This document shows, in pieces, positions 9,436-26,868 of a DNA stretch of 64,000 nucleotides. Source of the stretch: Gemmatimonadales bacterium. GTDB taxonomy: Bacteria; Gemmatimonadota; Gemmatimonadetes; Gemmatimonadales; GWC2-71-9. Position 1 is the stretch's first letter. Each line of letters opens with the position of its first letter. Location: the NCBI GenBank assembly GCA_036397755.1, contig DASWII010000035.1, positions 43,049 to 107,048 of the forward strand, read 5' to 3'. The position numbers and the translations under genes were made by a program. The notes under the pieces are model-generated. The model saw only the letters and a program-made list of their open reading frames with translations. It was not told the origin of the DNA and made no database searches.

Positions 9436-10088
9436 GCGACCGAGCGACGAGCGGACGCGCCAACACCCAGGCGAAGCTCCGGGGGGCGGTCTCCCGACGT
9501 GACGTCGTGCGCGCCCTCGCGGCAGCCGGCGCGGCGTCGGCGTTCACCTGGACGCCCGACGAAGTGGCCCGCGCCGCCGAGCACGCGCTGCGGCCCAATC
9601 TCGACTCGACACGCCAGGGAGCGGTCCCGCGGTTCTTTACTGCGCATGAATGGGACACCGTCCGATTGCTCGTGGACCTCGTCATTCCGCGGGACGAACG
9701 ATCCGGCAGCGCTACCGACGCGGGGGTGCCCGAGTTCATGGACTTCATCATGCTCGACGGTGACAATGAACGGCGCCAGACGGCGATGCGCGGCGGCCTC
9801 GCGTGGCTCGACATCGAGTGCCGCGAGCGGTTCGACGCCGACTTCGTTTCCTGCACCACACAGCAACGCATCGCCGTGCTCGATGACATCGCGTATCCGG
9901 ATCGGACCGCGCCGGCCTACGCGCAAGGGGCGGCGTTCTTCACAAGCTTCCGGAATCTGACGGCGAGTGGATTCTGGTCGAGCAAGATGGGGGTGATGGA
10001 CCTGCAGTACATCGGAAACACGGCGCTTGCCCAGTGGACGGGGTGTCCCGCCGATCAGTTGCGCAAGCTGGGAGTGGACGGCGGGTGA
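9432..10088 (+). CDS. gluconate 2-dehydrogenase subunit 3 family protein (TAT-signal small subunit)
   Basis: ATGA overlap with the GMC stop. SRRDVVRALAAAGAASA twin-arginine leader. This is the typical small partner of GMC dehydrogenases. Confidence 0.8.
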   Translation: MSDRATSGRANTQAKLRGAVSRRDVVRALAAAGAASAFTWTPDEVARAAEHALRPNLDSTRQGAVPRFFTAHEWDTVRLLVDLVIPRDERSGSATDAGVPEFMDFIMLDGDNERRQTAMRGGLAWLDIECRERFDADFVSCTTQQRIAVLDDIAYPDRTAPAYAQGAAFFTSFRNLTASGFWSSKMGVMDLQYIGNTALAQWTGCPADQLRKLGVDGG

Positions 10089-10111
10089 TCAGGGAGCGAT
10101 AGGAACTGCAC

Positions 10112-11353
10112 ATGGCACGGGAGCGACTTGGTATCGGATTCGTCGGGAGCGGCTTTAATGCCCGATTCCATCTGCAGGCGTTCGTGGGGGTGCGCGACGG
10201 GGACGTGCGCGGCATCTGGAGTCCCAACAGACAGCGTGCCGAAGCGACGGCGCGCATCGCGCGGGCTTTGGATGTCGGGGAGGCGAAGGCCTACACCTCC
10301 ATCACCGACATGGTCGCCGACCCGGCGATCGACGCGTTGTGGATCTGCGGCCCCAATCATGCCCGCATCGAGAACATCAAGGAAATCGTCGACGCGGTGC
10401 GGCACGGCAAGGGCGTGCTGAAGGGGATCGCCTGCGAGAAACCGCTCGCTCGCAACGTCGCGGAAGCCAAACAGGTGGCGCGGCTCGTAAAGCGCGCGGG
10501 CATCAAACACGGCTACCTCGAGAACCAGGCGTTCGCGCCCCAGGTGGTACATGGTCACGCCCTGCTGTGGGCGCGCGGCGCGTCGTTGACGGGACGGCCA
10601 TACCTCGCCAGAGCCGCGGAGGAGCACAGCGGGCCGCACATGCCGTGGTTCTGGCAGGGCAACCTGCAGGGTGGCGGAGTGCTCAACGACATGATGTGCC
10701 ACTCGGCGCTGGTGGTGTGGCACCTGCTCACACAGCCCGGATCGCCGTTGGCGTCGGTGAAGCCGGTGCGCGTGACGGGTCACATCGCGAGCCTCAAATG
10801 GACTCGCCCGGAGTACGTGCGGCAGCTGCAGAGATCGATGGGCAAAGAGGTCGACTATGCGCGAGCGCCGGCCGAGGACTTCGCCAGCATGACCATCGAG
10901 TTCAAGACCGATGACGGGCAGACCGTGCTCGGCGAAGCCACGACGTCGTGGAGCTTCGTGGGCGCCGGGCTGCGCCTTTCCGCCGAGCTTCTGGGCCCCG
11001 AATACTCCTTGTCCTGGAACACCCTCGACGCGGGGCTGAAGCTCTTCTTCAGCCGGGCGGTCAAGGGCAAGACGGGCGAGGACCTCGTCGAGAAGCAGAA
11101 CGCGGAAACGGGACTCATGCCCGTCGTCGCCAACGAACCGGTGGCGTACGGATATGAGGCGGAGGACCGCCACTTTGTCCGAGCGTTTTTGGGACTCGAG
11201 GAACCGATGCTGACGTTCGACGACGGTCTGGAGGTCGTGAAGCTGCTCATGGCGGGCTACATGAGCGCCGAGAAACGGCGCACCGTGCCGTTCCCCCCCA
11301 AGGGACTGGACAGTTTCGTCCCGGCGGTGGCACGGGGCACCTGGAAACCCTGA
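10112..11353 (+). CDS. Gfo/Idh/MocA family oxidoreductase
   Basis: N-terminal Rossmann motif LGIGFVGSGFNARFH; Gfo/Idh/MocA-like body; 413 aa. Confidence 0.85.
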   Translation: MARERLGIGFVGSGFNARFHLQAFVGVRDGDVRGIWSPNRQRAEATARIARALDVGEAKAYTSITDMVADPAIDALWICGPNHARIENIKEIVDAVRHGKGVLKGIACEKPLARNVAEAKQVARLVKRAGIKHGYLENQAFAPQVVHGHALLWARGASLTGRPYLARAAEEHSGPHMPWFWQGNLQGGGVLNDMMCHSALVVWHLLTQPGSPLASVKPVRVTGHIASLKWTRPEYVRQLQRSMGKEVDYARAPAEDFASMTIEFKTDDGQTVLGEATTSWSFVGAGLRLSAELLGPEYSLSWNTLDAGLKLFFSRAVKGKTGEDLVEKQNAETGLMPVVANEPVAYGYEAEDRHFVRAFLGLEEPMLTFDDGLEVVKLLMAGYMSAEKRRTVPFPPKGLDSFVPAVARGTWKP

Positions 11354-11488
11354 CGTGGATGAAGGGGTCGCCACGCTGGAGTCGGTTCGCATCCGCGTGT
11401 ACCGCAAGGACCGCGAACCGTGAAACCCGCATCGCAACTTCGCGGGCGGCTCAGGGTACTTCTGTCACAGCTCCTACCCAACACACAT

Positions 11489-13126
11489 ATGTCACTACAA
11501 TCTCACAGTCTCGCGCTTGTGGCCGCGCTAGCGATCGTCGCGCCGACCTCACCCGTGTACGGACAGGCGGCGAACGCGGTCAGCGCCGCGACCCTGCGGG
11601 AACATCTTTTCACCATCAGTCACGATTCCATGGGGGGCCGAAACACGGGAAGCCGTGGCAACGCCATGGCCACCGCGTATGTGGCGGCGCGCTTCAGAGC
11701 AGCCGGTCTCGATCCGGCCGGCGACGATGGGACGTTCTTCCAGAATCTTCCGTTCGTTCAGGTCACGCTGCGGGCGGATGCCTCCATCATGGCCGGAAAG
11801 GAACCCATCCCGTTCGGCGCCGGCGTCGTGCCGGGCAATCGGAGCGATTGGGATGCCACAGGCGTGCAGCCCCTGCACGGTGGTGCGATCGGTGACACCG
11901 CCAGTTGGCCCCGTGGACCGGAGGTGAAGGGGCGATTGGTGCTCTTCGCGAGCGGGGAGGTGAGCGGGAGGGCCGCGCGCGGGCTGCTGGACCAGGCGGC
12001 GGAAAGACTGCAGGCGGACGGCGCGAGCGCGGTGGGGCTGATCGTTGCCGAGCAGGGGCTGCGATTTTACGCCGCGCGGGCGCTGGGCACTTCCTTGGTG
12101 ATGGAGGGCGGTTCGGCGGGAGCGCCCCTTCCGCAAGTCATGGTGAGCGAGCACGCGGCGGCGACCATGCTGCGCGGAGATCTCGAGTCGGCAAGCCCGG
12201 GAACGACCGGTCCGGCGCTGCAGGGCGGCTATAGTTATTCCCGCAGTTCACCCGAGTGGCCGGTCCGCAACGTGGTGGGGATCCTGCGGGGCATAGATCC
12301 GGCGTTGAATCACACGTACATCGCGGTGACCGCGCACAACGATCACGTCGGAACGACCTCGACCCCCGTGGATCACGATTCGCTATTCGCACACAATCGG
12401 GTGATCCGACCGCTCGGCGCCGATTCGCGCAATCGTGACGCGACGGCGGATGAGGCGAAGAGGATTCAAGCGATACGCGACAGTCTCGGCGCGTTGCGTC
12501 CGAGCCGGCGGGACTCCGTGTTCAACGGCGCGGACGACGACGGGTCCGGTACCGTCAGTCTCATCGAGATTGCTCGGGCGCTCGCCGCGGGCGAGCGGCC
12601 GCGGCGTTCGGTACTGTTCGTTTCGCACGCCGGTGAAGAAATGGGGTTGCTGGGATCTCGGTGGTTCACGGAGCACCCGACCGTTCCGCGTGATTCCATC
12701 ATCGGCGACGTCGACCTCGACATGGTGGGCCGCGGTCCGGGGGCGGCGGACCCGGAGTACTTGGAAATCGTCGGCTCGCGGCGGCTGTCCACCCGCTTCG
12801 GCGATCTCCTCGAGGTGGCCAACGCCGGCATGGCAGCGTCCTTCCTGTTCGACTACCAGTTCGACGCACCGGGACACCCACTGCGATACTACTGTCGCGT
12901 CGACGCCTACAGCTATGCGCGGCACGGCATCCCGGTGGCGTCGCTCGGGCGCGGAGGGCATCCCGACTACCATCAGCTCACCGATGAACCGCAGTACATC
13001 GATTACGACGGGCTCGCCCGCGTCGCGACGCTCGTGCGTGACTTCGTGCGCCACGTCGCGAACCTAGATGAACGTCCGCTCGTCGATGGACCCGTGGGTG
13101 ACCCCGAGGCGCGGTGTGTCCAGTAA
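11489..13126 (+). CDS. M28 family metallopeptidase, secreted
   Basis: Start moved to ATG 11489 (MSLQSHSLALVAALAIVA signal). Zn-ligand-like blocks VTAHNDHVG, NGADDDGSGTVSLIEIARAL and SHAGEEMGLLGS. Confidence 0.8.
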   Translation: MSLQSHSLALVAALAIVAPTSPVYGQAANAVSAATLREHLFTISHDSMGGRNTGSRGNAMATAYVAARFRAAGLDPAGDDGTFFQNLPFVQVTLRADASIMAGKEPIPFGAGVVPGNRSDWDATGVQPLHGGAIGDTASWPRGPEVKGRLVLFASGEVSGRAARGLLDQAAERLQADGASAVGLIVAEQGLRFYAARALGTSLVMEGGSAGAPLPQVMVSEHAAATMLRGDLESASPGTTGPALQGGYSYSRSSPEWPVRNVVGILRGIDPALNHTYIAVTAHNDHVGTTSTPVDHDSLFAHNRVIRPLGADSRNRDATADEAKRIQAIRDSLGALRPSRRDSVFNGADDDGSGTVSLIEIARALAAGERPRRSVLFVSHAGEEMGLLGSRWFTEHPTVPRDSIIGDVDLDMVGRGPGAADPEYLEIVGSRRLSTRFGDLLEVANAGMAASFLFDYQFDAPGHPLRYYCRVDAYSYARHGIPVASLGRGGHPDYHQLTDEPQYIDYDGLARVATLVRDFVRHVANLDERPLVDGPVGDPEARCVQ

Positions 13127-15703: not shown

Positions 15704-16930
15704 TCACGCGACCACCCGTGCGGCGGCCCTGGGTGACGGACGGAATGCCACGGCAAACAGCCCCAGGACTACGGCGGCCATGACGGCTGGAACGATCCAG
15801 ACGATGCGCCAGTCATGCTCGAGCGCACCGACCGGTTGCGCGAGCTGATATACCTCCACGACCTGCCCCGCCACCCACGAGCCGATAAACCACCCTACAC
15901 CCAGGGTCACGAAGGCGATGAAGCCCTGCGCCGCCGCACGGATCCGTTCGCCCGCCTGCTGGTCCACATAAATCTGGCCAGTTACGAAGAAGAAGTCATA
16001 GCACACGCCATGAAGGAGAATGCCCCCGTAGAGCATCCAGATCCCGCTCTGCACATCCCCGTACGCGAAGAACACGTAGCGAAGCGCCCACGCGGCCATA
16101 CCGATCATCAGGATCCGCTTCACGCCCCAGCGCAGCAAAAACCATGGCAGAGCGATCATGAACACGATCTCGGACATCTGCCCGAACGTCATTTTGGCGG
16201 CGGGGGCCATCATCCCGGACTCGTTGAGGAAGAGGTTCGTGAATCCGTAGTAGAACTGCAGCGGAATCACGAGCAAGAACGATCCGATCAGAAAGATCGT
16301 GAACGAACGGTCCTGCATGAGTGCCAAGGCGTCCAGACCGAGGACGTCCCGCACGCGAACGGGACCACCGGCGGCTCTTGGTGGCGTATGCGGAAGCGAG
16401 AGGCAGTACAACCCCAGCACGATTGACGCCCCGGCGGCGATCCGCATCGGCCACGGCGTGGCCTCGATGCCCATGAGGCCGATGAACAGGCCCGCCACGA
16501 TCCAGCCGATCGTGCCGAGCACCCGAATGCTGGGGAAATCCTTCGCCGGATCGTCCACGTTGTGGAACGAGATCGAATTGGTCAGCGCCAACGTCGGCAT
16601 GTACAGCAGCGCGTATCCGATCAGCACGGGGTAGAATGTGCCGAAATCGCCGGCGGTCGAGACCCAGTACATCATCAGGCCCCCACCGATGTGGAGCGCC
16701 GCGAGCATCTTCTCGGTGGCGAAGAACCGGTCGGCCACCATCCCCACGAAGAACGGAGAGATCATCGCGGCGATAGCCGTGGTGCCGTACGCGAGACCGA
16801 TTTGTCCGCCTTCGAACCGGAGTGTCTGCCCGAGATAGGTGCTCATGGTGACTGCCCAGGCACCCCAGATGAAATACTGCAAGAACATCATCGCCGAGAG
16901 GCGCGTGCGAACTGCTCCGGCGTGGTGCAT
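15704..16930 (-). CDS. MFS nucleoside:H+ symporter (NupG/XapB family)
   Basis: The translation aligns by eye along its length to E. coli NupG. Examples: [63 protein letters not shown]. Confidence 0.8.
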
Positions 16931-17081: not shown

Positions 17082-18611
17082 CTAGGTGGTTGCCAATCGA
17101 CGCAGCGCCCCGCGATCGATCTTGCCGAGATGTGTCTGCGGCATGGTCTCGAGGAACACGAAGGCGCGCGGATGCTTGTACGCGGCCAAGCGCTCCTGGA
17201 CGAGCGCGCGGAGCTCGGTCTCCACCATTCCCCGGTCGCCATCGGTCACGACGAACGCCCGCGTCAGCGTGAGTCCGGTCGCGTCGGGCATCCCCATGAC
17301 GGCCGCATCGCGCACGGCCGGGTGTTCCAGGAGGCAACTCTCGACTTCCTGCGGCGCCAGCCACTTCCCGGAGACCTTCAACATGTCGTCCGCGCGACCG
17401 CAGTAGGTCACATACCCGTCCGCATCGATCGCAATCATGTCGCCCGACACGTACCATTCGCCGCGAAACGCGCCCGCCGTCTTGTCCATTTGCTGCCAGT
17501 AGCCCAGGGCCCGCGAATCTCCACGCACCCACAACGCCCCGATCTCACCCGCGCCCACCGCATGCCCGAACTCGTCGCACGCCCGCACCTCGAACCCGGG
17601 CACGACCGTACCCAGAGTGCCTGGACGCACAGCGCCCGGCCGGTTCGAGATGAAGATGTGCCACATCTCGGCGGTACCAAGGCCGTCGAGCAGTTCCACA
17701 CCGAACGTCTCGTTCCAGCGGGAGTGCAGCTCGCCAGGGAGCGCCTCGCCAGCCGACGTCGCGAGACGCAGGCTGCTGACATCCTGCTCGCGCGCCGTGG
17801 CATGACTTACCATTTGATGGACCATCGTCGGGACGTTGATCAGGATGGTCGGACGATGGGCGGCGATCTTGGCAAACAGCACGTCGGGTGTACAGCGGTC
17901 GGCAAACAGCACCGCTGTCCCGCCGACGGCAAACGGAAAGAAAAGATTCGATCCGGTCGCGTACCCGAAGAACAGCTTGGGCACGGCAATCGTGACGTCG
18001 TCCTCCGTGTAACCGATCACTCCCTTGGCATAGCACTCGGTGGTATTGGCAAACGCCCGGTGTGTCTGCACGACGGCCTTGGGCCTGCCAGTGGTCCCAC
18101 CGGAGAACAGCCAGATGGCCGCGTCGTCGCGATGGGACGGGAATGACACGAGTTCAGTGGGCGCGCTTGTGCGTTCGGCGTCGAACTCACGGTCCCCGAC
18201 AATCAACAACCGCTTCAGATGCGGGGAGGCGGTCGCGGCGGCCCTGAACGTGTCCAGCGCATCCCGCTGCACGAGTGCCGCGCTGGCGCGTGTGTACGCG
18301 AAGAAGTACTCCACCTCGTGTGCCCGGAGATGTGGGTTGACCATCACCACGACGGCCCCAATCTTCAACACGCCGAACAGGGCCGCCACATACTCCGGTC
18401 CGTCGGGGAGAGCGACGATCACCCGCTGCTCCGGCTCCACCCCTGCGGCGCGCAGCACCGCGCCGAACTGGTTGCTGAGGCATTGCACCTCGCGATAGGT
18501 CAGGGTGCCGTTGTCCGTAATGAGCGCGATGCGTGATCCGCGACCCTCGCGGATGCGAGCGTCCAGAAAATAGTCGGCGATGTTGAATTGCTCGGGTGGA
18601 ATGAACGTCAT
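17082..18611 (-). CDS. benzoate-CoA ligase family aryl-CoA ligase; probable 2-aminobenzoate (anthranilate)-CoA ligase
   Basis: FNIADYFLD..., the AMP-binding motif LFSGGTTGRPKAV, and KLFFGYATGSNLFFPFAVGGT, typical of the benzoate-CoA ligase subfamily. The substrate guess comes from neighbouring genes. Confidence 0.8.
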   Translation of the reverse strand: MTFIPPEQFNIADYFLDARIREGRGSRIALITDNGTLTYREVQCLSNQFGAVLRAAGVEPEQRVIVALPDGPEYVAALFGVLKIGAVVVMVNPHLRAHEVEYFFAYTRASAALVQRDALDTFRAAATASPHLKRLLIVGDREFDAERTSAPTELVSFPSHRDDAAIWLFSGGTTGRPKAVVQTHRAFANTTECYAKGVIGYTEDDVTIAVPKLFFGYATGSNLFFPFAVGGTAVLFADRCTPDVLFAKIAAHRPTILINVPTMVHQMVSHATAREQDVSSLRLATSAGEALPGELHSRWNETFGVELLDGLGTAEMWHIFISNRPGAVRPGTLGTVVPGFEVRACDEFGHAVGAGEIGALWVRGDSRALGYWQQMDKTAGAFRGEWYVSGDMIAIDADGYVTYCGRADDMLKVSGKWLAPQEVESCLLEHPAVRDAAVMGMPDATGLTLTRAFVVTDGDRGMVETELRALVQERLAAYKHPRAFVFLETMPQTHLGKIDRGALRRLATT

Positions 18612-18632
18612 CGGGGGAAATTGTCACCACGT

Positions 18633-19388
18633 ATGCCCGTACACCAGTTGGCCGACCTGACGTGGAACGACGCGAGCACGCTCTCGGCGGACGCCGTTTG
18701 CCTGCTTCCCATTGGGGCCCTGGAGGCGCATGGCCCTCATCTTCCGTTGCAGACTGATGTAATCATCGCGGAGGCCATGGCCCGAAACGCCGCCGGTCGC
18801 ATTGCGGGCGGTGGCCGTACCGTGCTCATCCTCCCTACCTTGGCCTACACCCCCGCTCCGTTCGCCGAGAGTTTCGCCGGAACCTTGTCGATCCACCCCG
18901 ATCACGTGGTCGGGCAGATCGTCGATATCGCTCGGGCGCTTACGGCGGTCGGGTGCAGCCGTCTGATGCTGATCAACGCACATTTCGACCCGACGCATCT
19001 GTCGGCGTTGTCGGAAGCCGAGGACATCTGCCGGCAGGAAGGCCTGCTGCAGGTCATATTCCCCAACGTCACACGCAAACCATGGGCGTCCCGCCTGGGC
19101 GCGGAGTTCGCGAGCGGGGCCTGTCATGCCGGACGCTACGAGGGTTCCATCGTGCTCGCGGCACGTCCCGACCTCGTTCATGAGGAGACCATGCGGTCGC
19201 TCGAACCCAACCACTTGTCCCTGTCGGATGCCGTCCGCGAGGGGAAGCAGACCTTCATGGAAGTGGGGGGGACGCAGGCATATTTTGGGTTTCCCGCGGA
19301 GGCCACCGCGGCCGAGGGTGAGATGTTGATCGCGACGCTTGGCCGCATCGTCGAGGAGTCACTCGACATGGCGCGGCCCTCCCCGTGA
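18633..19388 (+). CDS. creatininase-family metal amidohydrolase
   Basis: Start at ATG 18633 (MPVHQLADLTW). LLPIGALEAHGPHLPLQTDVIIAEA is the family signature region. Confidence 0.75.
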   Translation: MPVHQLADLTWNDASTLSADAVCLLPIGALEAHGPHLPLQTDVIIAEAMARNAAGRIAGGGRTVLILPTLAYTPAPFAESFAGTLSIHPDHVVGQIVDIARALTAVGCSRLMLINAHFDPTHLSALSEAEDICRQEGLLQVIFPNVTRKPWASRLGAEFASGACHAGRYEGSIVLAARPDLVHEETMRSLEPNHLSLSDAVREGKQTFMEVGGTQAYFGFPAEATAAEGEMLIATLGRIVEESLDMARPSP

Positions 19389-20170
19389 GCTCACCCGCCG
19401 GCAGCGCACGGACGGCCCTCGTGACGGGCGGCGGTCGGGGAATCGGAGCGGCCATTGCCAGGCGGCTGACCGCCGAAGGCATCGCCGTGGTGGTGTCCGC
19501 CCGCACGGAAGCCGAGATCGAGGCGGTCGCTGCGGAACTGGTTGCCGGAGGCGCCGAGGCGGTCGCCATCGCGTGCGATGTCACGGACGCCGCCCAGGTG
19601 GTGGAGCTGGCCGAGCGTGCAATCGCACGGTTTGGAGCGGTGGACATTCTCATCAACAACGCGGGGGTTGCGGACTCCGCTCCGGTCCATCGCATCACGT
19701 TGGAGAACTGGAACCGGCTCTTGGCGATCAACGCCACGGGTCCATTCTTGCTGACGCAGGCCATTCTTCCCACCATGCTCGCGTCGGGTTGGGGTCGGGT
19801 CGTCAACATCGCCTCGGTCGCGGGACTCACGGGAGCGAAGTACATCGCCGCATATACCGCGTCGAAGCACGCCCTGATCGGTTTCACGCGGGCGCTGGCG
19901 GCGGAGGTAGCCGGCCGTGGCGTGACCGTCAACGCTGTGTGCCCTGGTTATGTCGACACGCCGATGACCGATCAGTCGGTCGCGCGGATCGTCGAGAAGA
20001 CCGGGAGGGAGTCGGAAGCCGTGCGACAGGCCATGCGTGATCGGTCGCCGCAGGGTCGTCTCATCGCACCGGACGAGGTGGCTCACGTCGTGGCCGGACT
20101 CTGCGACGAGCGCGCCGGGGGGATCAACGGCCAGGCGATCGTCATCGATGGCGGAGCAACGCACGCATGA
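19385..20170 (+). CDS. short-chain dehydrogenase/reductase (SDR)
   Basis: GTGA overlap with the upstream stop. TGGGRGIGAAIA cofactor motif and YTASKHAL catalytic motif. Confidence 0.85.
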   Translation: MSSPAGSARTALVTGGGRGIGAAIARRLTAEGIAVVVSARTEAEIEAVAAELVAGGAEAVAIACDVTDAAQVVELAERAIARFGAVDILINNAGVADSAPVHRITLENWNRLLAINATGPFLLTQAILPTMLASGWGRVVNIASVAGLTGAKYIAAYTASKHALIGFTRALAAEVAGRGVTVNAVCPGYVDTPMTDQSVARIVEKTGRESEAVRQAMRDRSPQGRLIAPDEVAHVVAGLCDERAGGINGQAIVIDGGATHA

Positions 20171-20586
20171 CCTTCGAGATCATCAATCCGGAGGCGTTGG
20201 GAGCGCCGCGGGGGTGGAACAACGGCATGCTGGGGCCCACGGGCGGGCGGATCCTCCTTGTGGCCGGCCAGTCGGCGGCTGGGTCCGACGGTTCCATGCC
20301 GCACGGCATGGCCGCCCAGTGGGAGCGAGCCCTCGAGAAGATCGTGTCGGTCGTCCGCGCCGCCGGTGGCGCGCCGACCGATATTGGCCGGCTCACGATT
20401 TACGTCACGGACGTCGAGGCGTATCGTACCGGATTGCGGGATATCGGCGCGGCCTATCGTCGCGTCATGGGCACACACTTCCCGGCGATGGCCCTGCTAC
20501 ATGTGCGAGGACTGCTCGAGCCGGGAGCACTCGTGGAAATCGAAGCGACCGCCTGGATAACCGCCGACGCGGCGACGGAGTCTTGA
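20167..20586 (+). CDS. RidA/YjgF family reactive-intermediate (enamine/imine) deaminase-like protein
   Basis: 139 aa with ATGA overlap. The C-terminal ...LVEIEATA pattern is typical of RidA. Confidence 0.75.
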   Translation: MTFEIINPEALGAPRGWNNGMLGPTGGRILLVAGQSAAGSDGSMPHGMAAQWERALEKIVSVVRAAGGAPTDIGRLTIYVTDVEAYRTGLRDIGAAYRRVMGTHFPAMALLHVRGLLEPGALVEIEATAWITADAATES

Positions 20587-20588
20587 GC

Positions 20589-21389
20589 ATGGCCATCTCA
20601 CCAACCACGTTCCTCTACGATCTCGACGCCACCACCTCGGTCGCGACGATCACGCTCAACCGACCGGAGCGCCTGAACGCGCTCACCTTCGACGTTTATG
20701 CAGAGCTGCGCGATACGATGAAAGCGCTAGACACCGAACCCGGTGTGCGCGCCATTGTGATGACCGGCGCGGGTCGCGGATTCTGCTCCGGCGGCGACGT
20801 CGAGCACATCATCGGCGAGCTGTTCGCGCGCGATCATGTCGGCCTGCGCGAGTTCACCAGAATGACGTGCGATCTGATTTACAACATGCGCGCCTGCCGG
20901 CGTCCGATCGTCGGCGCCCTCAACGGCACGGTGGCCGGCGCCGGGGCCGTGATCGCGACCGCGTGCGACGTGCGCATCGCCGCCGAGTTCGCCAAGATCG
21001 CGTACCTCTTCACCAAGGTGGGCCTCTCGGGCGCGGACATGGGCGCCGCGTGGATGCTGCCGCGTATCGTCGGGTTCGGGCGAGCCACCGAGTTATTGAT
21101 GTCCGGCGAGTTCATCTCCGCCGAAGAGGCGCATCGCATTGGGTTGTACAATCGAGTCGTTCCGCAGGATCGGGTGCTCGTAGAAGCGCGCGGTGTTGCC
21201 GAGCGTCTTGCGCGCGGTCCGTCGCACGCGCTGGGCGTCACGAAGGCAGCCTTGAATTGCGAAGCCACGTTGGATCTCGCCACCGCGCTCGAGCTCGAGG
21301 CCCATGCGCAAGCTGACTGCATGCTGAGCCCCAACTTCCGTGAAGCCTACGAAGCCTTTCGCTCGAAGCGCGACGCCGTGTTCGTGTAG
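20589..21389 (+). CDS. enoyl-CoA hydratase/isomerase (crotonase) family
   Basis: Start at ATG 20589 inside the longer track ORF. ITLNRPERLNAL, GAGRGFCSGGD, ALNGTVAGAGAVIA. Confidence 0.85.
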   Translation: MAISPTTFLYDLDATTSVATITLNRPERLNALTFDVYAELRDTMKALDTEPGVRAIVMTGAGRGFCSGGDVEHIIGELFARDHVGLREFTRMTCDLIYNMRACRRPIVGALNGTVAGAGAVIATACDVRIAAEFAKIAYLFTKVGLSGADMGAAWMLPRIVGFGRATELLMSGEFISAEEAHRIGLYNRVVPQDRVLVEARGVAERLARGPSHALGVTKAALNCEATLDLATALELEAHAQADCMLSPNFREAYEAFRSKRDAVFV

Positions 21390-21395
21390 CGCCCG

Positions 21396-22550
21396 ATGCT
21401 CGACGTCCATCCCGTGCGCGCGTTCCTCACCAAGCGGCACATCGCCTTTGCCGCCGCGGCCGATCGGTTTGCGACGACCGACATCGCGGCGCTCCCGGGG
21501 GTCGGTGAGGATGAGGCGGCGAGGGTTCAGGCGCGCCAGGTCCTGAAGCTCCTCGGGGGTGCATGGCTACAGCCGATACGCGACCAAGATCTCCGCGCAT
21601 GCTGTCTGATGCGCGAGGCCCTGGCCGCGGCGTCTCCGTTGGCCGACGCCGTCTTCGCGCTCCAAGCGTTGGGAGCCACCCCGCTCGTCTTGGCGGGCAC
21701 CGACGAACAGCGTGCGCGATGGCTTGAACCGGCGCTGGCCGGCACCGCCCTCGCCGCCTTCGCAATGACCGAACCCGGCGCCGGCTCGGACGTCGCCTCG
21801 CTCAACACCCGCGCCGAGGAGAGTGGAGAGGGATTCGTACTGAACGGCGCCAAGAGCTTCATCTCCAACGCGGGCATCGCCGACTTCTATGTAGTGTTCG
21901 CGACGCTGGATCCGTCCCAGCGCCATCGCGGCATCGCGTGCTTTCTCGTTCCGGCCGACACCCCTGGCCTCCGTTTCGTCGGGCCCCAGGTGATGAGTGC
22001 TCCCCACCCGCTGGGGGACATCGCGTTCAACGACTGCCGGCTACCGCGCTCAGCGTTGCTCGCGCCGGCGGGGGAGGGTTTCAAGCTCGGACTTGCGACG
22101 TTGGACCGCCTGCGCGCGACGGTCGCCGCCGCCGCCTGCGGCATGGCCGCCCGCGCGCTCCGGGAAGCTCTCGATCACGCCAAGCGGCGTCACCAGTTCG
22201 GCAAGCCCCTGGGGGAGTTCCAGCTCGTGCAAGACAAAGTCGCGCGGATGGCGATCGATCTCACGGCGGCGCGTCTGCTGACGTACCGCGCGGCCTGGGA
22301 ACGCGACGAAGGCGCCGAGCGCGTCACGCTGGAATCGGCCATGGCCAAGGCCTTCGCCACGGAGGCGGCCCAGCGTGTCATCGATCACGCGGTCCAGATC
22401 TTGGGCGGAACCGGCGTGCTGGCCAGCCATCCGGTCGAGCGACTCTACCGGAGCATTCGGGCGCTCAGAATCTACGAGGGAACGACCGAGATCCAGCACC
22501 TGATAATCGCCGGCAAGCTCCTGGACGCCGTGAACGATCCGCACGCATGA
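21396..22550 (+). CDS. acyl-CoA dehydrogenase
   Basis: [11 protein letters not shown], the GxKxFISNAG region and the YEGTTEIQ C-terminal motif. Confidence 0.9.
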
Positions 22551-24802
22551 GGATCGTCGCGGTCGGCGGCGGACCAGCCGCACTTTATCTGGCCATCCTG
22601 CTCAAGCGCGATGACCCACGACACGACATCGTGGTGTACGAGCGCAATCGCCTGGACGATACGTTCGGGTTCGGGGTGGTATTCTCCGATGCTACTGCAC
22701 ACAACCTCGCCGAGGCGGAGCCCGAAGTTCATGCGGCCATCTCCCGGCAGTTCTTCCGCTGGGATGACATCCACATTCACTTCCGCGATCAGATCCTGAC
22801 GTCCACCGGACATGGATTCAGCGGGCTGGCGCGTACAACGCTCCTGGATGTGCTCGCCGCGCGCGCCCGCGAACTTGGCGTCGACCTCCGGTTTCAGGCG
22901 GAGATCACGGACGTCGACTCGTTGCGAGACTGTGACCTGCTGGTCGCCGCGGACGGCGCGAGCAGTACCGTACGCGAGCGGTACGCCGACCACTTCCAGC
23001 CGACGATCGACTGGCGTCTCAATCGCTTCGTGTGGCTGGGCACGACCAAGCCGTTTCCGGCTTTCACGTTCTACTTCAAGGAAACGCCGCATGGACTCTG
23101 GCGAGTCCACGCCTATCAATACGCCCCGGGTCATTCCACGTTCATCGTGGAGGGAACGGAACGCACGTGGTGCGCGTCGGGAATGGCGGAGGCGTCGGAG
23201 TCCGACGCCTTGGCGTATTGCGAGGATCTCTTCGGTCCGGAGCTAAACGGTCACCGGTTGCTGACCAACAAGTCCGTCTGGCGGCGTTTTCCCACGATCC
23301 GGAACGCGCGCTGGTGGCACGAAAACATGGTGCTCATCGGTGACGCCGCCCACACGGCACACTTCTCGATCGGCTCGGGCACCAAGCTCGCGATGGAGGA
23401 CGGTGTGGCGCTCGCGGCCGCCTTGCGCGCCCACCCCGGAGATGTGCGGGCGGCGCTCATGGCATATGAAGAGGAGCGACGGCCCGCCGTGGCGAGCGCC
23501 CAACGGGCCGCGCAGGTGAGTCTGCAGTGGTTCGAGGACACCGAACGCTACATGGATCTGGAGCCGATTCAGTTCGGCTTCAACCTCCTCACTCGCAGCC
23601 TGCGCGTCACGCACGAAAACCTGCGGGAGCGCGATCCCGCCTACGTGCGTGAGATCGACCGATGGTTCGCCGACAGTGCCGGGCGTCACGCCGGACCCTC
23701 GGCGCCCTCGACGCCGGTGCGGCCGCCCATGTTCACGCCGTTCGCGCTGCGCGACATGGTGCTCGAGAATCGCGTGGTCGTTTCTCCGATGTGCCAGTAC
23801 TCCGCCGAAGACGGCACGCCAAACGAATGGCACCTCGTGCATCTGGGTGCGCGCGCCATTGGCGGCGCCGGGCTCGTGTTCGCCGAAATGACCGATGTGA
23901 GCCCCGAGGCACGCATTTCTCCTTGGTGCACGGGGATGTACAAGCCAGAGCACGTGGAGGCCTGGCGGCGCATCGTGGACTTCGTCCATGAGAACTCCTA
24001 TGCCAAGATCGCCCTCCAGCTGGGGCACGCGGGCCGGAAAGCGGCAACCAAGCGCATGTGGGAGGGTGACGTGCAGCCGTTGGAGCACGGCGGCTGGCCA
24101 ATCGTCTCCGCGTCACCCATCCCCTATTTCGATCACAGTCCGGTCCCTCGGGAGATGACCCGCGAGGATATGCTCGGGGTCGTGCGGGAGTTCGAACGCG
24201 CGACCACTATGGCGAACGACGCGGGGTTTGACATGCTCGAGGTGCACTTCGCTCACGGGTACCTGCTCGCGAGCTTCGTGTCGCCCCTGACCAATCTGCG
24301 TGACGACGATTACGGTGGCACGTTGGACAATCGACTCCGGTTTCCGCTGGAGGTGTTCGACGCCGTACGCGCCAAGTGGCCCCGACACAAACCCATGTCC
24401 GTCCGCATCTCCGCGGTCGACTGGGCGCCGGGCGGGATGGAGGCGGGGGATGCCGTGGAGGTAGCCAGACGGCTTAAGGACCACGACTGTGACATCGTGG
24501 ACGTTTCAGCGGGCCAGACCGTTCCCCATCAGCAACCGGTGTATGGGCGGCTCTTCCAGACGCCTTTTGCCGATCGCATACGACGGGAAATCGGACTCGC
24601 AACCATGGCCGTCGGAAACATCTCGTCGTTCACGGACGTGAACACCATCCTCGCCGCCGGAAGAGCGGACCTGTGCATGCTCGCCCGAGCGCACCTGTGG
24701 GATCCGTATTGGACTCGCCACGCGGCGTACGAACTCGGCGTCGACCTGCCCTGGCCGGAGCAGTACGCAACGCTCAACAGCTACACCCCGCGATTCAAGT
24801 GA
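22547..24802 (+). CDS. fused FAD monooxygenase + Old-Yellow-Enzyme-like NADH:flavin reductase (2-aminobenzoyl-CoA monooxygenase/reductase-like; the salicylyl-CoA 5-hydroxylase family shares this architecture)
   Basis: ATGA overlap with the ACAD stop. N-terminus [18 protein letters not shown] (GxGxxG). C-terminal half shows [12 protein letters not shown]...QLGHAGRKA...HFAHGYLL, the OYE signature. 751 aa. Confidence 0.8.
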
Positions 24803-24873
24803 GCGGGCAACGCTCTGTGGGACCTCACGTCCACCATCTCACGTCCTCTAACGGCTAACGCGAACGCCCACTC

Positions 24874-25644
24874 ATGCCCACCTACTCCGAATACCTGAAG
24901 GTCGACGCGCTCCTGTCCCTACAGGAACCCTTGTCCGATGGGCCAGAGCATGACGAAACGCTGTTCATCGTCATTCACCAGGTGTACGAGCTGTGGTTCA
25001 AGGAAGTCCTACACGAGCTCGACTATCTCAAGCGTCTGCTTCACGCCAACGATCGTCCGCGGGCGGTCCACACGCTCAAACGCGTCCTCACGATTCTGAA
25101 GACACTCGTCGCGCAGATCGACGTGCTGGAGACCATGACACCGCTGGAGTTCCTCTCGTTCCGCGATCGCCTGGAATCCGGCAGTGGATTTCAGTCCTAC
25201 CAGTTCCGTGAGTTGGAGTTTGTACTCGGCGCGAAGCACCGCTGGGCGCTCGATCATTTTCCGGAGGGCTCGACGGCTCGGGCAAACCTACATCGGCGGT
25301 TCCAGGAACCGACGCTGTGGGACGCGCTGCTGGACCACCTCCGCCTGAGCGGCTATGCGGTCCATCGACGTGCCGATGTGACGACACCGATCGAACCCGA
25401 CGCCGCGAACAAGCAGGCACTCATCCAGGCGTACCGCACCGATCCCGGCGCTGGAGAGCTGTGCGAGCGGTTCGTGGATCTGGACGAAGGCGTGCAGGAA
25501 TGGCGTTATCGTCACGTCAAGATGGTGCAGCGCACGATTGGCACCAAACGGGGGACCGGCGGTTCCACCGGCGCCGAGTATCTCGTCACAACGCTGCTCA
25601 AACCCGTGTTCCCGGATCTGTGGGACATCCGCACCGAACTCTGA
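24874..25644 (+). CDS. kynA: tryptophan 2,3-dioxygenase
   Basis: YSEYLKVDALLSLQEP..DE.LFIVIHQVYELWFK, plus the C-terminal GTGGSTGAEYL motif typical of bacterial TDO. Confidence 0.85.
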   Translation: MPTYSEYLKVDALLSLQEPLSDGPEHDETLFIVIHQVYELWFKEVLHELDYLKRLLHANDRPRAVHTLKRVLTILKTLVAQIDVLETMTPLEFLSFRDRLESGSGFQSYQFRELEFVLGAKHRWALDHFPEGSTARANLHRRFQEPTLWDALLDHLRLSGYAVHRRADVTTPIEPDAANKQALIQAYRTDPGAGELCERFVDLDEGVQEWRYRHVKMVQRTIGTKRGTGGSTGAEYLVTTLLKPVFPDLWDIRTEL

Positions 25645-26843
25645 TGCCCCGCCCCTCGCTATCGTCGTTGCGCGCATCCAAGAACGCCCTCGCGCCACAC
25701 TACTCGCGGTTTCGTGTGGCGGAACGGCTCCTGCTGACCGGGCACTCCCACCAAGCGTGGCCCGATGTCGGGTTCGAGGCGCAGCAGGCAGCGTGGACCG
25801 ATGCGGCGGAGTTGGTCGACGACAAGTGGCAGCGCGCGTTCGCCAAGGCCGACCGCGTCCGCGAGGCCCTCGCCGCGCTACTCGGCGACACGACCGGCAC
25901 CATCGCCCTGGGCAGCAATACCCACGACCTTCTGGTACGGCTCCTGTCGGCGTTGCCCTTGCGGCAAAGGGCTCGCATCGTGACGACCGACGGAGAGTTT
26001 CACACCGTGCGGCGGCAGCTGGACCGGCTGGCGGAGGAAGGCATCGAGATCACGCGCATCTCGCACGAGCCCGCCGCTGCCGTGGCTGAGCGGCTGGCCG
26101 CCGCCGTGAACGACCGTACGACGCTGGTCGTCGTTTCCAGTGTCTTCTACCTCAATGCCCACATCGCCCCCGACCTCGACGTGGTGGCTCACGCGTGCAG
26201 TCGCGTGGGGGCCGCGCTGCTGGTCGATGCCTACCACACCCTCAATGCTGTCCCGTTCTCGCTCGCCGACCAGGCACTGGAGCAGGCGTTTGTGGTCGGG
26301 GGTGGCTACAAGTACTGCCAACTGGGTGAGGGCAACTGCTTCCTACGACTTCCTCCCGATTGCACCCTGCGACCCGTGATCACCGGTTGGTTCAGCGAGT
26401 TCGCCGATCTGGCGGAGGGGCAGCGTTCCGACGAGGTGGCATACGGCGCGGGGCCGGCGCGCTTTGCCGGGGCCACGTACGATCCAACGAGTCACTACCG
26501 AGCCGCGGCGGTGCTGGACTTCTTCGGCGAGCACGATCTCACACCGGCGTTTCTGCGTGAGGTGTCGCAACATCAGGTTGGGACGCTGGCCGCGGCGTTC
26601 GATGCGCTCGATCTTGACCCGGCGGTCGTCACGCGGGATCGGTCCGTTCCCCTGGAGCAATTGGGCGGGTTCCTTGCGCTCCGGGCTCCTAGGGCTGCGT
26701 GGCTCTCCGCCGGACTCAGGCAGCGCGGTGTGTGGACGGACTATCGCCGAGACGTGCTACGCTTTGGGCCTGCTCCGTACCTGTCGGACGCCCAACTCAC
26801 GGACGCGATGGATGCCTTGAGGGCCACGGTCAACGACAGCTGA
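25644..26843 (+). CDS. kynU: kynureninase-family class V PLP enzyme
   Basis: ATG 25644 overlaps the kynA stop. By eye it aligns to Pseudomonas KynU around GGGYKYCQLGEG (PLP-Lys region), ITGWFSEF and the C-terminal LRFGPAPYL. Confidence 0.65.
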   Translation: MPRPSLSSLRASKNALAPHYSRFRVAERLLLTGHSHQAWPDVGFEAQQAAWTDAAELVDDKWQRAFAKADRVREALAALLGDTTGTIALGSNTHDLLVRLLSALPLRQRARIVTTDGEFHTVRRQLDRLAEEGIEITRISHEPAAAVAERLAAAVNDRTTLVVVSSVFYLNAHIAPDLDVVAHACSRVGAALLVDAYHTLNAVPFSLADQALEQAFVVGGGYKYCQLGEGNCFLRLPPDCTLRPVITGWFSEFADLAEGQRSDEVAYGAGPARFAGATYDPTSHYRAAAVLDFFGEHDLTPAFLREVSQHQVGTLAAAFDALDLDPAVVTRDRSVPLEQLGGFLALRAPRAAWLSAGLRQRGVWTDYRRDVLRFGPAPYLSDAQLTDAMDALRATVNDS

Positions 26844-26846
26844 ACG

Positions 26847-26868
26847 TGGGCGTCTCACGCCTATCTTT
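26847..26868. terminator. compact hairpin between convergent genes (possible bidirectional terminator)
   Basis: UGGGCGU-CUC-ACGCCUA (7 bp including one G-U pair) followed by UCUUU on the + strand. It overlaps the DUF1080 stop codon. Confidence 0.3.

Follow-up and report, generated by a model that had tools for sequence, protein, structure and literature searches.

A Gemmatimonadales locus that probably joins tryptophan cleavage to coenzyme A-dependent degradation of anthranilate

Are the genes that release anthranilate from tryptophan and the genes that degrade anthranilate as a coenzyme A (CoA) thioester united in a single locus, and does such a locus serve catabolism? This question is raised by nine genes at positions 17082-26843 of a 64,000-nucleotide stretch (the window) of contig DASWII010000035.1, which belongs to a Gemmatimonadales soil bacterium (assembly GCA_036397755.1). 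Tryptophan degradation via anthraniloyl-CoA monooxygenase/reductase is a recognized but unresolved route (PMC9007349, 2022), and for Cupriavidus, genome reconstructions have already proposed a functional connection of the kyn genes with abmG and the abm genes (PMC8879955, PMC2842291). The concept is therefore not new, because both half-pathways are known and their functional connection has been proposed from those genomes. What is new here is the union of kyn and abm genes at the level of an operon, together with a divergent kynureninase and a creatininase-family gene. An initial annotation of the window had claimed that kynA and kynU are joined in this locus to the CoA-dependent hybrid pathway, and this core claim withstood every computational test that we ran; its remark that the later steps of the pathway are biochemically unresolved agrees with the literature (PMC9007349). 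We consider it likely that the locus is a catabolic operon pair for the degradation of L-tryptophan and anthranilate via CoA thioesters, and that it represents a Gemmatimonadota-type variant of the abm system. This reading is built on family-level gene identities, on catalytic motifs that are intact, on the architecture of the operon, and on its conservation in other genomes; from these we infer which substrates all of the enzymes use, in which order the lower steps proceed, and what the creatininase-family protein does.

Open reading frame listing with translation, combined with profile searches, found all nine genes at the coordinates given by the initial annotation, and its description of a minus-strand ligase gene diverging from eight near-touching plus-strand genes was confirmed, families included. 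The genes are as follows:

17082-18611, minus strand: ligase of the benzoate-CoA ligase family (TIGR02262), 509 amino acids (aa); proposed anthranilate-CoA ligase (AbmG-like)
18633-19388, plus strand: creatininase-family metal amidohydrolase (PF02633), 251 aa
19385-20170, plus strand: short-chain dehydrogenase/reductase (SDR; PF00106), 261 aa, assigned to the lower pathway
20167-20586, plus strand: RidA/YjgF-family protein (PF01042), 139 aa; may deaminate an enamine or imine to release the ring nitrogen
20589-21389, plus strand: crotonase-superfamily enzyme (NF006107), 266 aa, assigned to the lower pathway; may catalyze hydration and/or hydrolytic ring opening
21396-22550, plus strand: acyl-CoA dehydrogenase (ACAD) with ACAD N, M, and C domains, 384 aa, assigned to the lower pathway
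22547-24802, plus strand: fusion of a flavin adenine dinucleotide (FAD)-dependent aromatic monooxygenase (N-terminal) and an old yellow enzyme (OYE)-type, flavin mononucleotide (FMN)-dependent ene-reductase (C-terminal) (NF006101, PF01494, PF00724), 751 aa; proposed 2-aminobenzoyl-CoA monooxygenase/reductase
24874-25644, plus strand: tryptophan 2,3-dioxygenase (TDO; PF03301), 256 aa
25644-26843, plus strand: divergent kynureninase-family pyridoxal 5'-phosphate (PLP)-dependent hydrolase (KYNU_C, 28.8 bits; alignment to 1qz9), 399 aa

The junctions between the plus-strand genes are, in order, GTGA (where the stop codon of the creatininase-family gene overlaps the SDR start), ATGA, 2 nt, 6 nt, ATGA, 71 nt, and TGATG (where the TDO stop codon overlaps the kynureninase start). 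Because these junctions overlap or nearly touch, the eight genes look like one translationally coupled operon; the 71 nt before the TDO gene are its sole real intergenic gap. The start codons of the divergent ligase and creatininase-family genes lie 21 nt apart (18611-18633; 21-64 nt in relatives), and a promoter scan of the locus found no sigma-70-like promoter. As this gap is so short, either both promoters overlap coding sequence or the mRNAs are leaderless. A terminator-like hairpin is located at 26845-26859, just 3' of the kynureninase gene, and the terminator scan predicted terminators no more frequently than expected from shuffled sequence. The G+C content is about 65% across the window, and the locus has no compositional anomaly.

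The fused flavoenzyme had been predicted to combine an FAD-dependent monooxygenase with an OYE-type reductase, and this architecture was borne out. PF01494 (FAD_binding_3) matched residues 96-319 and PF00724 (Oxidored_FMN) matched residues 395-730, and the motifs of both halves are intact (GxGxxG at 7-12, DG at 136, GDAAH at 265, PMCQY at 414, and HFAHGYL at 567). Among proteins of known structure in the PDB, the N-terminal half matched VioD-type hydroxylases and the C-terminal half matched YqjM-class or thermophilic-type OYEs. The protein is 55% identical to a homologue from Ralstonia and 51% identical to one from pAL1 of Arthrobacter sp. Rue61a, which stands beside an experimentally validated anthranilate-CoA ligase (PMC3534580). 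Anthranilate-grown Arthrobacter contains the CoA esters of C7H7NO3 and C7H8O4 acids (PMC3534580), and it is the sole relative with a confirmed anthranilate-CoA ligase and detected CoA-ester intermediates. Like the window locus, the Arthrobacter system, whose genes lie on pAL1 and the chromosome, has a ligase, the fused enzyme, and a RidA-family protein (39% identical to that of the window). The validated ligase, however, is only 33% identical to the window ligase and belongs to another ligase subfamily. The pAL1 fused-enzyme gene has thioesterase, cupin, and fumarylacetoacetase-family genes as neighbors, and genes for a creatininase-family protein, an SDR, a crotonase, an ACAD, or kyn enzymes are missing there. 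These neighbors suggest that the lower route of pAL1 is different.

In gene content, the locus resembles a cluster on the Ralstonia solanacearum megaplasmid (L005; loci are designated by L numbers), which encodes a fused enzyme, MarR, an enoyl-CoA hydratase, an ACAD, a ligase, a thioesterase, and RidA. Along with the ligase, the two have in common the fused enzyme, the crotonase (50% identical to the Ralstonia enoyl-CoA hydratase), the ACAD (50%), and the RidA-like protein (36%). A layout like that of the Ralstonia cluster is reported for the abm clusters of Azoarcus (Aromatoleum) evansii, and the content reported for them (a benzoate-CoA-ligase-family ligase, a fused monooxygenase/reductase, a crotonase, an ACAD, and a YjgF/RidA-like protein) recurs in the window. 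The locus shares the logic of the abm pathway, in which CoA activation is followed by dearomatization through monooxygenation and reduction and then by processing of the CoA ester. It differs from the abm and Ralstonia clusters in that a creatininase-family gene comes first, the gene order is altered, and a TDO-kynureninase pair is placed at the 3' end; its hosts are Gemmatimonadota and Acidobacteriota rather than Proteobacteria. Genes for MarR and an ABC binding protein, which reportedly accompany the A. evansii genes, were found neither within 17082-26843 nor in the flanks, and a thioesterase gene is also absent from the locus; a MarR gene is present inside two variant loci (L108 and L179).

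The ligase exceeded the cutoff of the benzoate-CoA ligase family model TIGR02262 (479 bits; cutoff 375), and its gene is located divergently upstream of the creatininase-family gene in 30 of 32 loci.

We then considered the two genes assigned to tryptophan cleavage. TDO matched PF03301 (215 bits) and the bacterial TDOs in the PDB (E ~1e-48), and it retains H35, R97, the GFQS motif, and H214; we take the three residues to be the distal His, the carboxylate-binding Arg, and the proximal His, respectively. The equivalent of Tyr113 is Phe. The kynureninase-like protein matched KYNU_C as its only Pfam family and aligned over its full length with Pseudomonas fluorescens kynureninase 1qz9 (E 2e-12 with the single sequence and 9e-19 with a subfamily profile), which ranked well ahead of cysteine desulfurases. 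K223 (within GGGYKY), D195, and R373 match conserved positions of 1qz9 and are invariant in the subfamily; presumably they are the PLP lysine, the PLP aspartate, and the carboxylate/substrate-binding arginine. The protein is 60% identical to proteins that PGAP names kynureninase and whose genes immediately follow TDO in Streptomyces and Nonomuraea; its identity to a Vibrio protein of this kind is 44%. In these three genera, the pair is adjacent independently of the window locus, and in Actinomycetota and Vibrio, homologues of the protein were always found as the partner of TDO. Divergent kynureninase genes with no TDO gene within 10 kb were seen in L010, L024, L070 (gene at about 10001-11200), and L017 (6257-7456); that of L070 adjoins the ligase gene and the abm operon, and the neighbors in L010, L017, and L024 are unrelated.

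As in the bacterial kynA-kynB-kynU system, of which Streptomyces coelicolor SCO3644-3646 are reportedly an example as kynurenine (anthranilate) pathway genes, the TDO residues are conserved and a kynureninase-family PLP hydrolase is encoded directly downstream. The window locus differs from that system in its divergent kynureninase subfamily and in the lack of a formamidase gene. No kynurenine formamidase domain, whether of the cyclase (KynB) or the alpha/beta-hydrolase type, was found among the nine proteins or in the flanks, and neither the window nor any of the loci that we fetched contains GTHxDxPxH, the motif of cyclase-type KynB. A bulk Pfam scan of 56 neighbors of stand-alone TDO-kynureninase pairs, in which we looked for a conserved formamidase, revealed no recurrent family. 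The product of the pair in the window would be channeled to a CoA ligase rather than to anthranilate dioxygenase or NAD synthesis.

We annotated 80 loci, centered on the kynureninase and drawn from one genome per species, by tblastn with the nine window proteins, and 54 of these loci had enough upstream sequence to be informative. A second scan, of metagenomes and centered on the creatininase-family protein, added 80 more loci with flanks of 10 kb. Among the 54 informative loci, 23 contained the nine genes in colinear order, 9 were partial or rearranged (in some, the operon from the creatininase-family gene to the fused gene is inverted relative to the TDO-kynureninase pair), 20 contained TDO and kynureninase alone, and 2 contained kynureninase alone. 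In the long-contig carriers L001, L002, and L004, the nine genes are colinear and the flanking genes are entirely different. The colinear carriers are mostly Gemmatimonadota and also include an Acidobacteriota bin, Limnocylindria, and Longimicrobiales. Homologues of the kynureninase-like protein number in the thousands and come mostly from metagenome-assembled genomes of Gemmatimonadales. In the metagenome scan, TDO or kynureninase was present in 20 of the 23 loci with the fused gene and absent from 3. The nine-gene arrangement is thus conserved far beyond chance, and the adjacency of kynA and kynU to the CoA-dependent genes, whose conservation the initial annotation had named as a check, holds in both scans. 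The proposed physical fusion of the two branches is better described as frequent docking than as an obligate fusion: TDO and kynureninase constitute a mobile two-gene module that is docked behind the fused gene at the operon's sole real gap and stands alone in many bacteria. In L041 and L064, TDO is separated from the fused gene by insertions that encode an outer-membrane barrel and a transporter, which we rejected as unrelated.

The window genes that surround the locus are unrelated to it as well, and encode a nucleoside-symporter-family major facilitator superfamily (MFS) protein, GFO/IDH/MocA oxidoreductases, a 3-keto-disaccharide hydrolase, and a glycoside hydrolase family 38 (GH38) mannosidase. 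The nucleoside:H+ symporter-family gene (15704-16930, minus strand) lies 151 nt downstream of the ligase gene, and we considered it as a possible member of the locus; in L004, which is the closest relative, a homologue lies not far from the cluster. As the gene is not kept beside the cluster in L001 or L002, it probably lies outside the locus.

Several observations weigh against a tryptophan- and anthranilate-degrading function. The fused enzyme passed the cutoff of NF006101 (1124.5 bits; cutoff 1078), which NCBI names "salicylyl-CoA 5-hydroxylase," and similarity did not separate benzoate-specific from anthranilate-specific enzymes in the case of the ligase, whose best PDB matches were the benzoate-CoA ligase 2v7b (392 bits) and the anthranilate-CoA ligase AuaEII 4wv3 (370 bits). 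TDO scored 263 bits against TIGR03036, below the cutoff of 390.7, and the kynureninase-like protein matched none of the NCBIfam kynureninase models at E <= 0.001. The 20 informative loci with TDO and kynureninase alone had no abm gene nearby, and six loci of Planctomycetota or Myxococcota lineage (L174-L179) have abm genes and no kyn genes. As kyn-only and abm-only loci both occur, the coupling of the two gene sets is frequent but not obligatory, and the docking of the kyn genes is specific to a branch. Finally, profile scans of the locus, annotation of the flanks, and the KynB motif scan identified no recognized formamidase, thiolase, transporter, or regulator in the locus. The evidence falls short of the complete route from tryptophan to aliphatic CoA esters that the initial annotation had envisaged: the tryptophan-cleaving and proposed anthraniloyl-CoA genes are often conserved together, but no gene in the locus is recognizable as encoding the formamidase or the thiolase.

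Some of these observations would also fit a different substrate, with the ligase and the fused flavoenzyme acting on salicylate or another ortho-substituted benzoate and the TDO-kynureninase pair serving a separate purpose such as NAD or alanine supply. The NF006101 match and the equal proximity of the ligase to benzoate-CoA and anthranilate-CoA ligases are consistent with this possibility, as are the 71-nt gap that parts the fused gene from TDO and the separation of the two modules in many genomes. The name of NF006101 presumably derives from the salicylyl-CoA 5-hydroxylase SdgC of Streptomyces sp. WA46, which shares the fused architecture of the window enzyme and matches the same model. However, PGAP also labels the pAL1 enzyme "bifunctional salicylyl-CoA 5-hydroxylase/oxidoreductase," and as that enzyme belongs to an anthranilate cluster, the name carries no substrate information; none of our sequence comparisons discriminates between enzymes for anthraniloyl-CoA and for salicylyl-CoA. 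Profile searches and flank annotation revealed no gentisate 1,2-dioxygenase, salicylyl-AMP ligase, or cupin gene in or beside the window locus, and in contrast to the SdgABCD context, the locus contains nitrogen-handling, beta-oxidation-type, and tryptophan-cleaving genes. Its lower module is of the beta-oxidation type and includes a RidA-like protein, as in abm-type clusters; the RidA-like protein and the amidohydrolase, two nitrogen-handling types, would suit an amino-substituted substrate better than a hydroxy-substituted one. Moreover, kyn genes have been docked repeatedly and independently to these genes, at the 3' end, divergently, behind the ligase (L095), and in a Streptomyces trio. 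We therefore regard a salicylate-type substrate as improbable.

The Streptomyces trio bears on a second possibility, that the locus supplies tryptophan-derived anthraniloyl-CoA for a secondary metabolite rather than for catabolism. On a Streptomyces goshikiensis plasmid (NZ_CP108579.1; L007 7530-11230), a ligase-family gene diverges from TDO and kynureninase genes, and the three products are 46%, 46%, and 60% identical to their window counterparts. The trio lies inside an enediyne-type biosynthetic cluster that also encodes a chromoprotein, a tyrosine aminomutase, and a chorismatase, and it is probably an independent instance of a module that supplies anthraniloyl-CoA from tryptophan. This homologous trio in an enediyne cluster of S. 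goshikiensis plasmids is what speaks for a biosynthetic role of the window genes. Against it, no polyketide synthase, nonribosomal peptide synthetase, tailoring, or export genes occur in or beside the window locus, six of its nine genes are of dearomatizing or beta-oxidation type, and the nine genes stay together while their flanks vary between genomes. A biosynthetic function thus seems very remote, and we continue to favor degradation of tryptophan and anthranilate via CoA thioesters.

The least expected element of the locus, and the sole one without precedent, is the creatininase-family gene. Its product matched PF02633 (166 bits) but fell below every equivalog cutoff (MftE, 112 bits against 172; creatininase, 85.7 against 235; IolN, 37.9 against 245). 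The metal ligands E31, H33, D42, and H117 and the equivalent of the catalytic His (H165) are conserved, and the residue corresponding to E122 of creatininase is Asp. Homologues are 243-257 aa long, and the ATG at 18633 is the favored start codon, an upstream TTG at 18588 being unlikely. The protein thus has the fold family and the binuclear metal ligands of the creatininase/MftE/IolN family, but in contrast to the characterized members of PF02633, it belongs to an orthologous group of its own that is tied to an aryl-CoA ligase and to lower-pathway genes. No orthologue (none above 32% identity) was present in the plasmid collection, in which 240 records hold a full-length homologue of the fused enzyme, and the one Ralstonia abm-like cluster that we inspected has no creatininase or kyn genes. 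More distant plasmid genes of the family (about 30% identity; Streptomyces, Sinorhizobium, and Ruegeria) were examined for clues, but their contexts were uninformative. None of the searchable papers ties creatininase-family proteins to kynurenine or anthranilate.

A second search, started from a divergent member, extended the homologues to Planctomycetota and Myxococcota, and the layouts of the six loci of these lineages, which lack kyn genes nearby, are informative. L176 has the ligase and creatininase-family genes, then three other genes and a MerR regulator gene, and then SDR-RidA-crotonase; L177 has creatininase-SDR-RidA-crotonase; L178 has creatininase-aldehyde dehydrogenase-SDR-RidA-crotonase-ACAD; and in L179, the full lower module precedes genes for a PaaA/PaaC-like protein and another type of OYE-like protein, which take the place of the fused enzyme. 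In L174 (8299-10774) and L175 (8304-10735), the divergent ligase/creatininase pair stands alone, the surrounding 10 kb holding no further abm or kyn genes; L175 comes from a Planctomycetes genome, and the contig of L174 encodes a creatininase-like protein identical to one that a source names from Haliangium ochraceum. Taken together, the layouts of L174-L179 indicate that the creatininase-family gene belongs to a unit of ligase and lower-pathway genes across phyla, whatever the dearomatizing enzyme or the linkage to kyn genes.

What, then, might the protein do? We tentatively assign it to the lower pathway, as a hydrolase that acts after dearomatization on an amide, lactam, or enaminone nitrogen or on the ring. 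It could remove the nitrogen of an enaminone, hydrolyze an amide or a five-membered lactam formed by ring opening, or cleave a C-C bond and so open the alicyclic ring, as IolN does with a cyclic diketone. The alternative that we weighed against this assignment is a role in deformylation. As a non-orthologous aryl-formamide deformylase, the protein would supply the ligase by acting on N-formylkynurenine, or on N-formylanthranilate after kynureninase; it would represent a third class of kynurenine or aryl-formamide formamidase, in place of cyclase-type KynB and alpha/beta-hydrolase formamidases, and would make the branch from tryptophan to anthranilate complete. Conversion of tryptophan to anthranilate needs three enzymes, and the locus has exactly three genes more than the abm cluster reported for A. 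evansii. Hydrolysis of an amide C-N bond is canonical creatininase-family chemistry, the family includes an aryl-formamide deformylase (archaeal ArfB), and the metal site of the window protein is intact. The genomic record also offers some support: the protein is found only in a cluster lineage that is often kyn-linked, with no orthologue in the plasmid collection; its gene neighbors the ligase gene in 30 of 32 loci and forms a pair with it alone in L174 and L175; L095 holds TDO, ligase, and creatininase-family genes in the absence of the lower module; and the cyclase-type KynB motif occurs in neither the window nor the fetched loci.

Other contexts argue against deformylation. The creatininase-family gene was found beside a stand-alone TDO-kynureninase pair in none of the 37 kyn-only loci, which are without any conserved neighbor. 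It remains with SDR-RidA-crotonase(-ACAD) in L177 and L178, which lack the kyn genes, the ligase, and the fused enzyme; it also occurs in L113, L131, L165, and L179 with no kyn genes nearby; and in the window, it is translationally coupled to SDR and not to TDO. The strength of its linkage was considered as a means of distinguishing the two roles, but the SDR gene is immediately downstream in 56 of 61 loci, and as the ligase and SDR genes are both closely linked to it, linkage does not discriminate between them. We consider the deformylase role doubtful, though still worth weighing, and retain the lower-pathway assignment as our tentative preference.

These genes are combined in another way in L095 (121-5925). 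A more divergent TDO (44% identity) is encoded directly behind the ligase on the same strand, a gene for the alpha subunit of a Rieske ring-hydroxylating oxygenase follows the creatininase-family gene in the place of SDR, and the lower module is absent. Either TDO has docked here independently, or the locus is what a rearrangement has left behind.

The remaining lower-module proteins are recognizable members of their families. SDR matched PF00106 (223 bits), and its nearest NCBIfam models are of the 3-hydroxybutyrate dehydrogenase and 3-oxoacyl reductase types. The crotonase passed the cutoff of NF006107 (358 bits; cutoff 330) and matched PF00378 (185 bits). The named models nearest to the ACAD, all below cutoff, were those for acryloyl-CoA reductase, non-decarboxylating glutaryl-CoA dehydrogenase, and cyclohexane-1-carbonyl-CoA dehydrogenase. 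The RidA-like protein matched PF01042 (52 bits) and has Met (in FPAM) at the position of the catalytic Arg105 of archetypal RidA (E. coli numbering); the Ralstonia counterpart (L005 16868-17257) also has Met. The RidA-like proteins of the window locus and the Ralstonia cluster form an Arg-less subfamily specific to these clusters. In L178, an aldehyde dehydrogenase gene (10800-12167) is situated between the creatininase-family and SDR genes, and it may point to an aldehyde among the intermediates of the lower pathway.

Three related loci share an orthologous ligase and lower module with the window (55-70% identity) but encode other proteins in place of the fused flavoenzyme (L179, 14281-16433; L108, 5872-8753; L165, 14713-17393). 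L179 has a PaaA/PaaC-like protein of 232 aa and an OYE-like protein of 484 aa, the latter with only about 33% identity to a portion of the OYE domain in the window, and L108 and L165 have separate open reading frames for an OYE-like protein and then an FAD-monooxygenase. These arrangements hint at alternative dearomatizing systems that feed the same lower pathway. Some clusters of the Gemmatimonadota type, in L041 (1258-1872), L121, and L140, have an additional gene between the ACAD and fused genes, whose OYE-like product shares about 30-33% identity with the OYE domain of the window enzyme. In one metagenome-assembled genome (L049, 4008-8909), the ACAD and fused genes are split over several frames, as pseudogenes or through indel errors in the assembly. 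A homologue of the fused enzyme on a Gemmatirosa plasmid was considered as a related cluster and set aside, as its context is not of the abm type.

Our preferred reading, catabolism of tryptophan and anthranilate via CoA thioesters, suggests the following sequence of reactions. TDO would convert L-tryptophan to N-formylkynurenine, which might be deformylated by the creatininase-family protein or by an unlinked formamidase, and the divergent kynureninase would then release anthranilate and alanine. The divergently transcribed ligase would activate anthranilate to 2-aminobenzoyl-CoA, and the FAD domain of the fused flavoenzyme would hydroxylate the ring, so that a dearomatized CoA ester is formed. 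For TDO, kynureninase, the ligase, and the fused enzyme, these assignments derive from family membership, intact active sites, and genomic context. Nitrogen might subsequently be released by the RidA-like protein and/or the creatininase-like hydrolase, the crotonase might catalyze hydration and hydrolytic opening of the alicyclic ring, and SDR and the ACAD could carry out the redox steps with which beta-oxidation begins, leading toward aliphatic CoA esters.

If the creatininase-like protein does act after dearomatization, then it would constitute, together with SDR, the Arg-less RidA-like protein, the crotonase, and the ACAD, the long-missing lower half of the pathway. The locus offers a compact and widely conserved candidate gene set for this unresolved lower pathway, with thousands of homologues in soil metagenomes. 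These findings suggest that abundant and poorly cultured soil phyla, Gemmatimonadota and Acidobacteriota, degrade tryptophan via a CoA route that avoids ring-cleaving dioxygenases.

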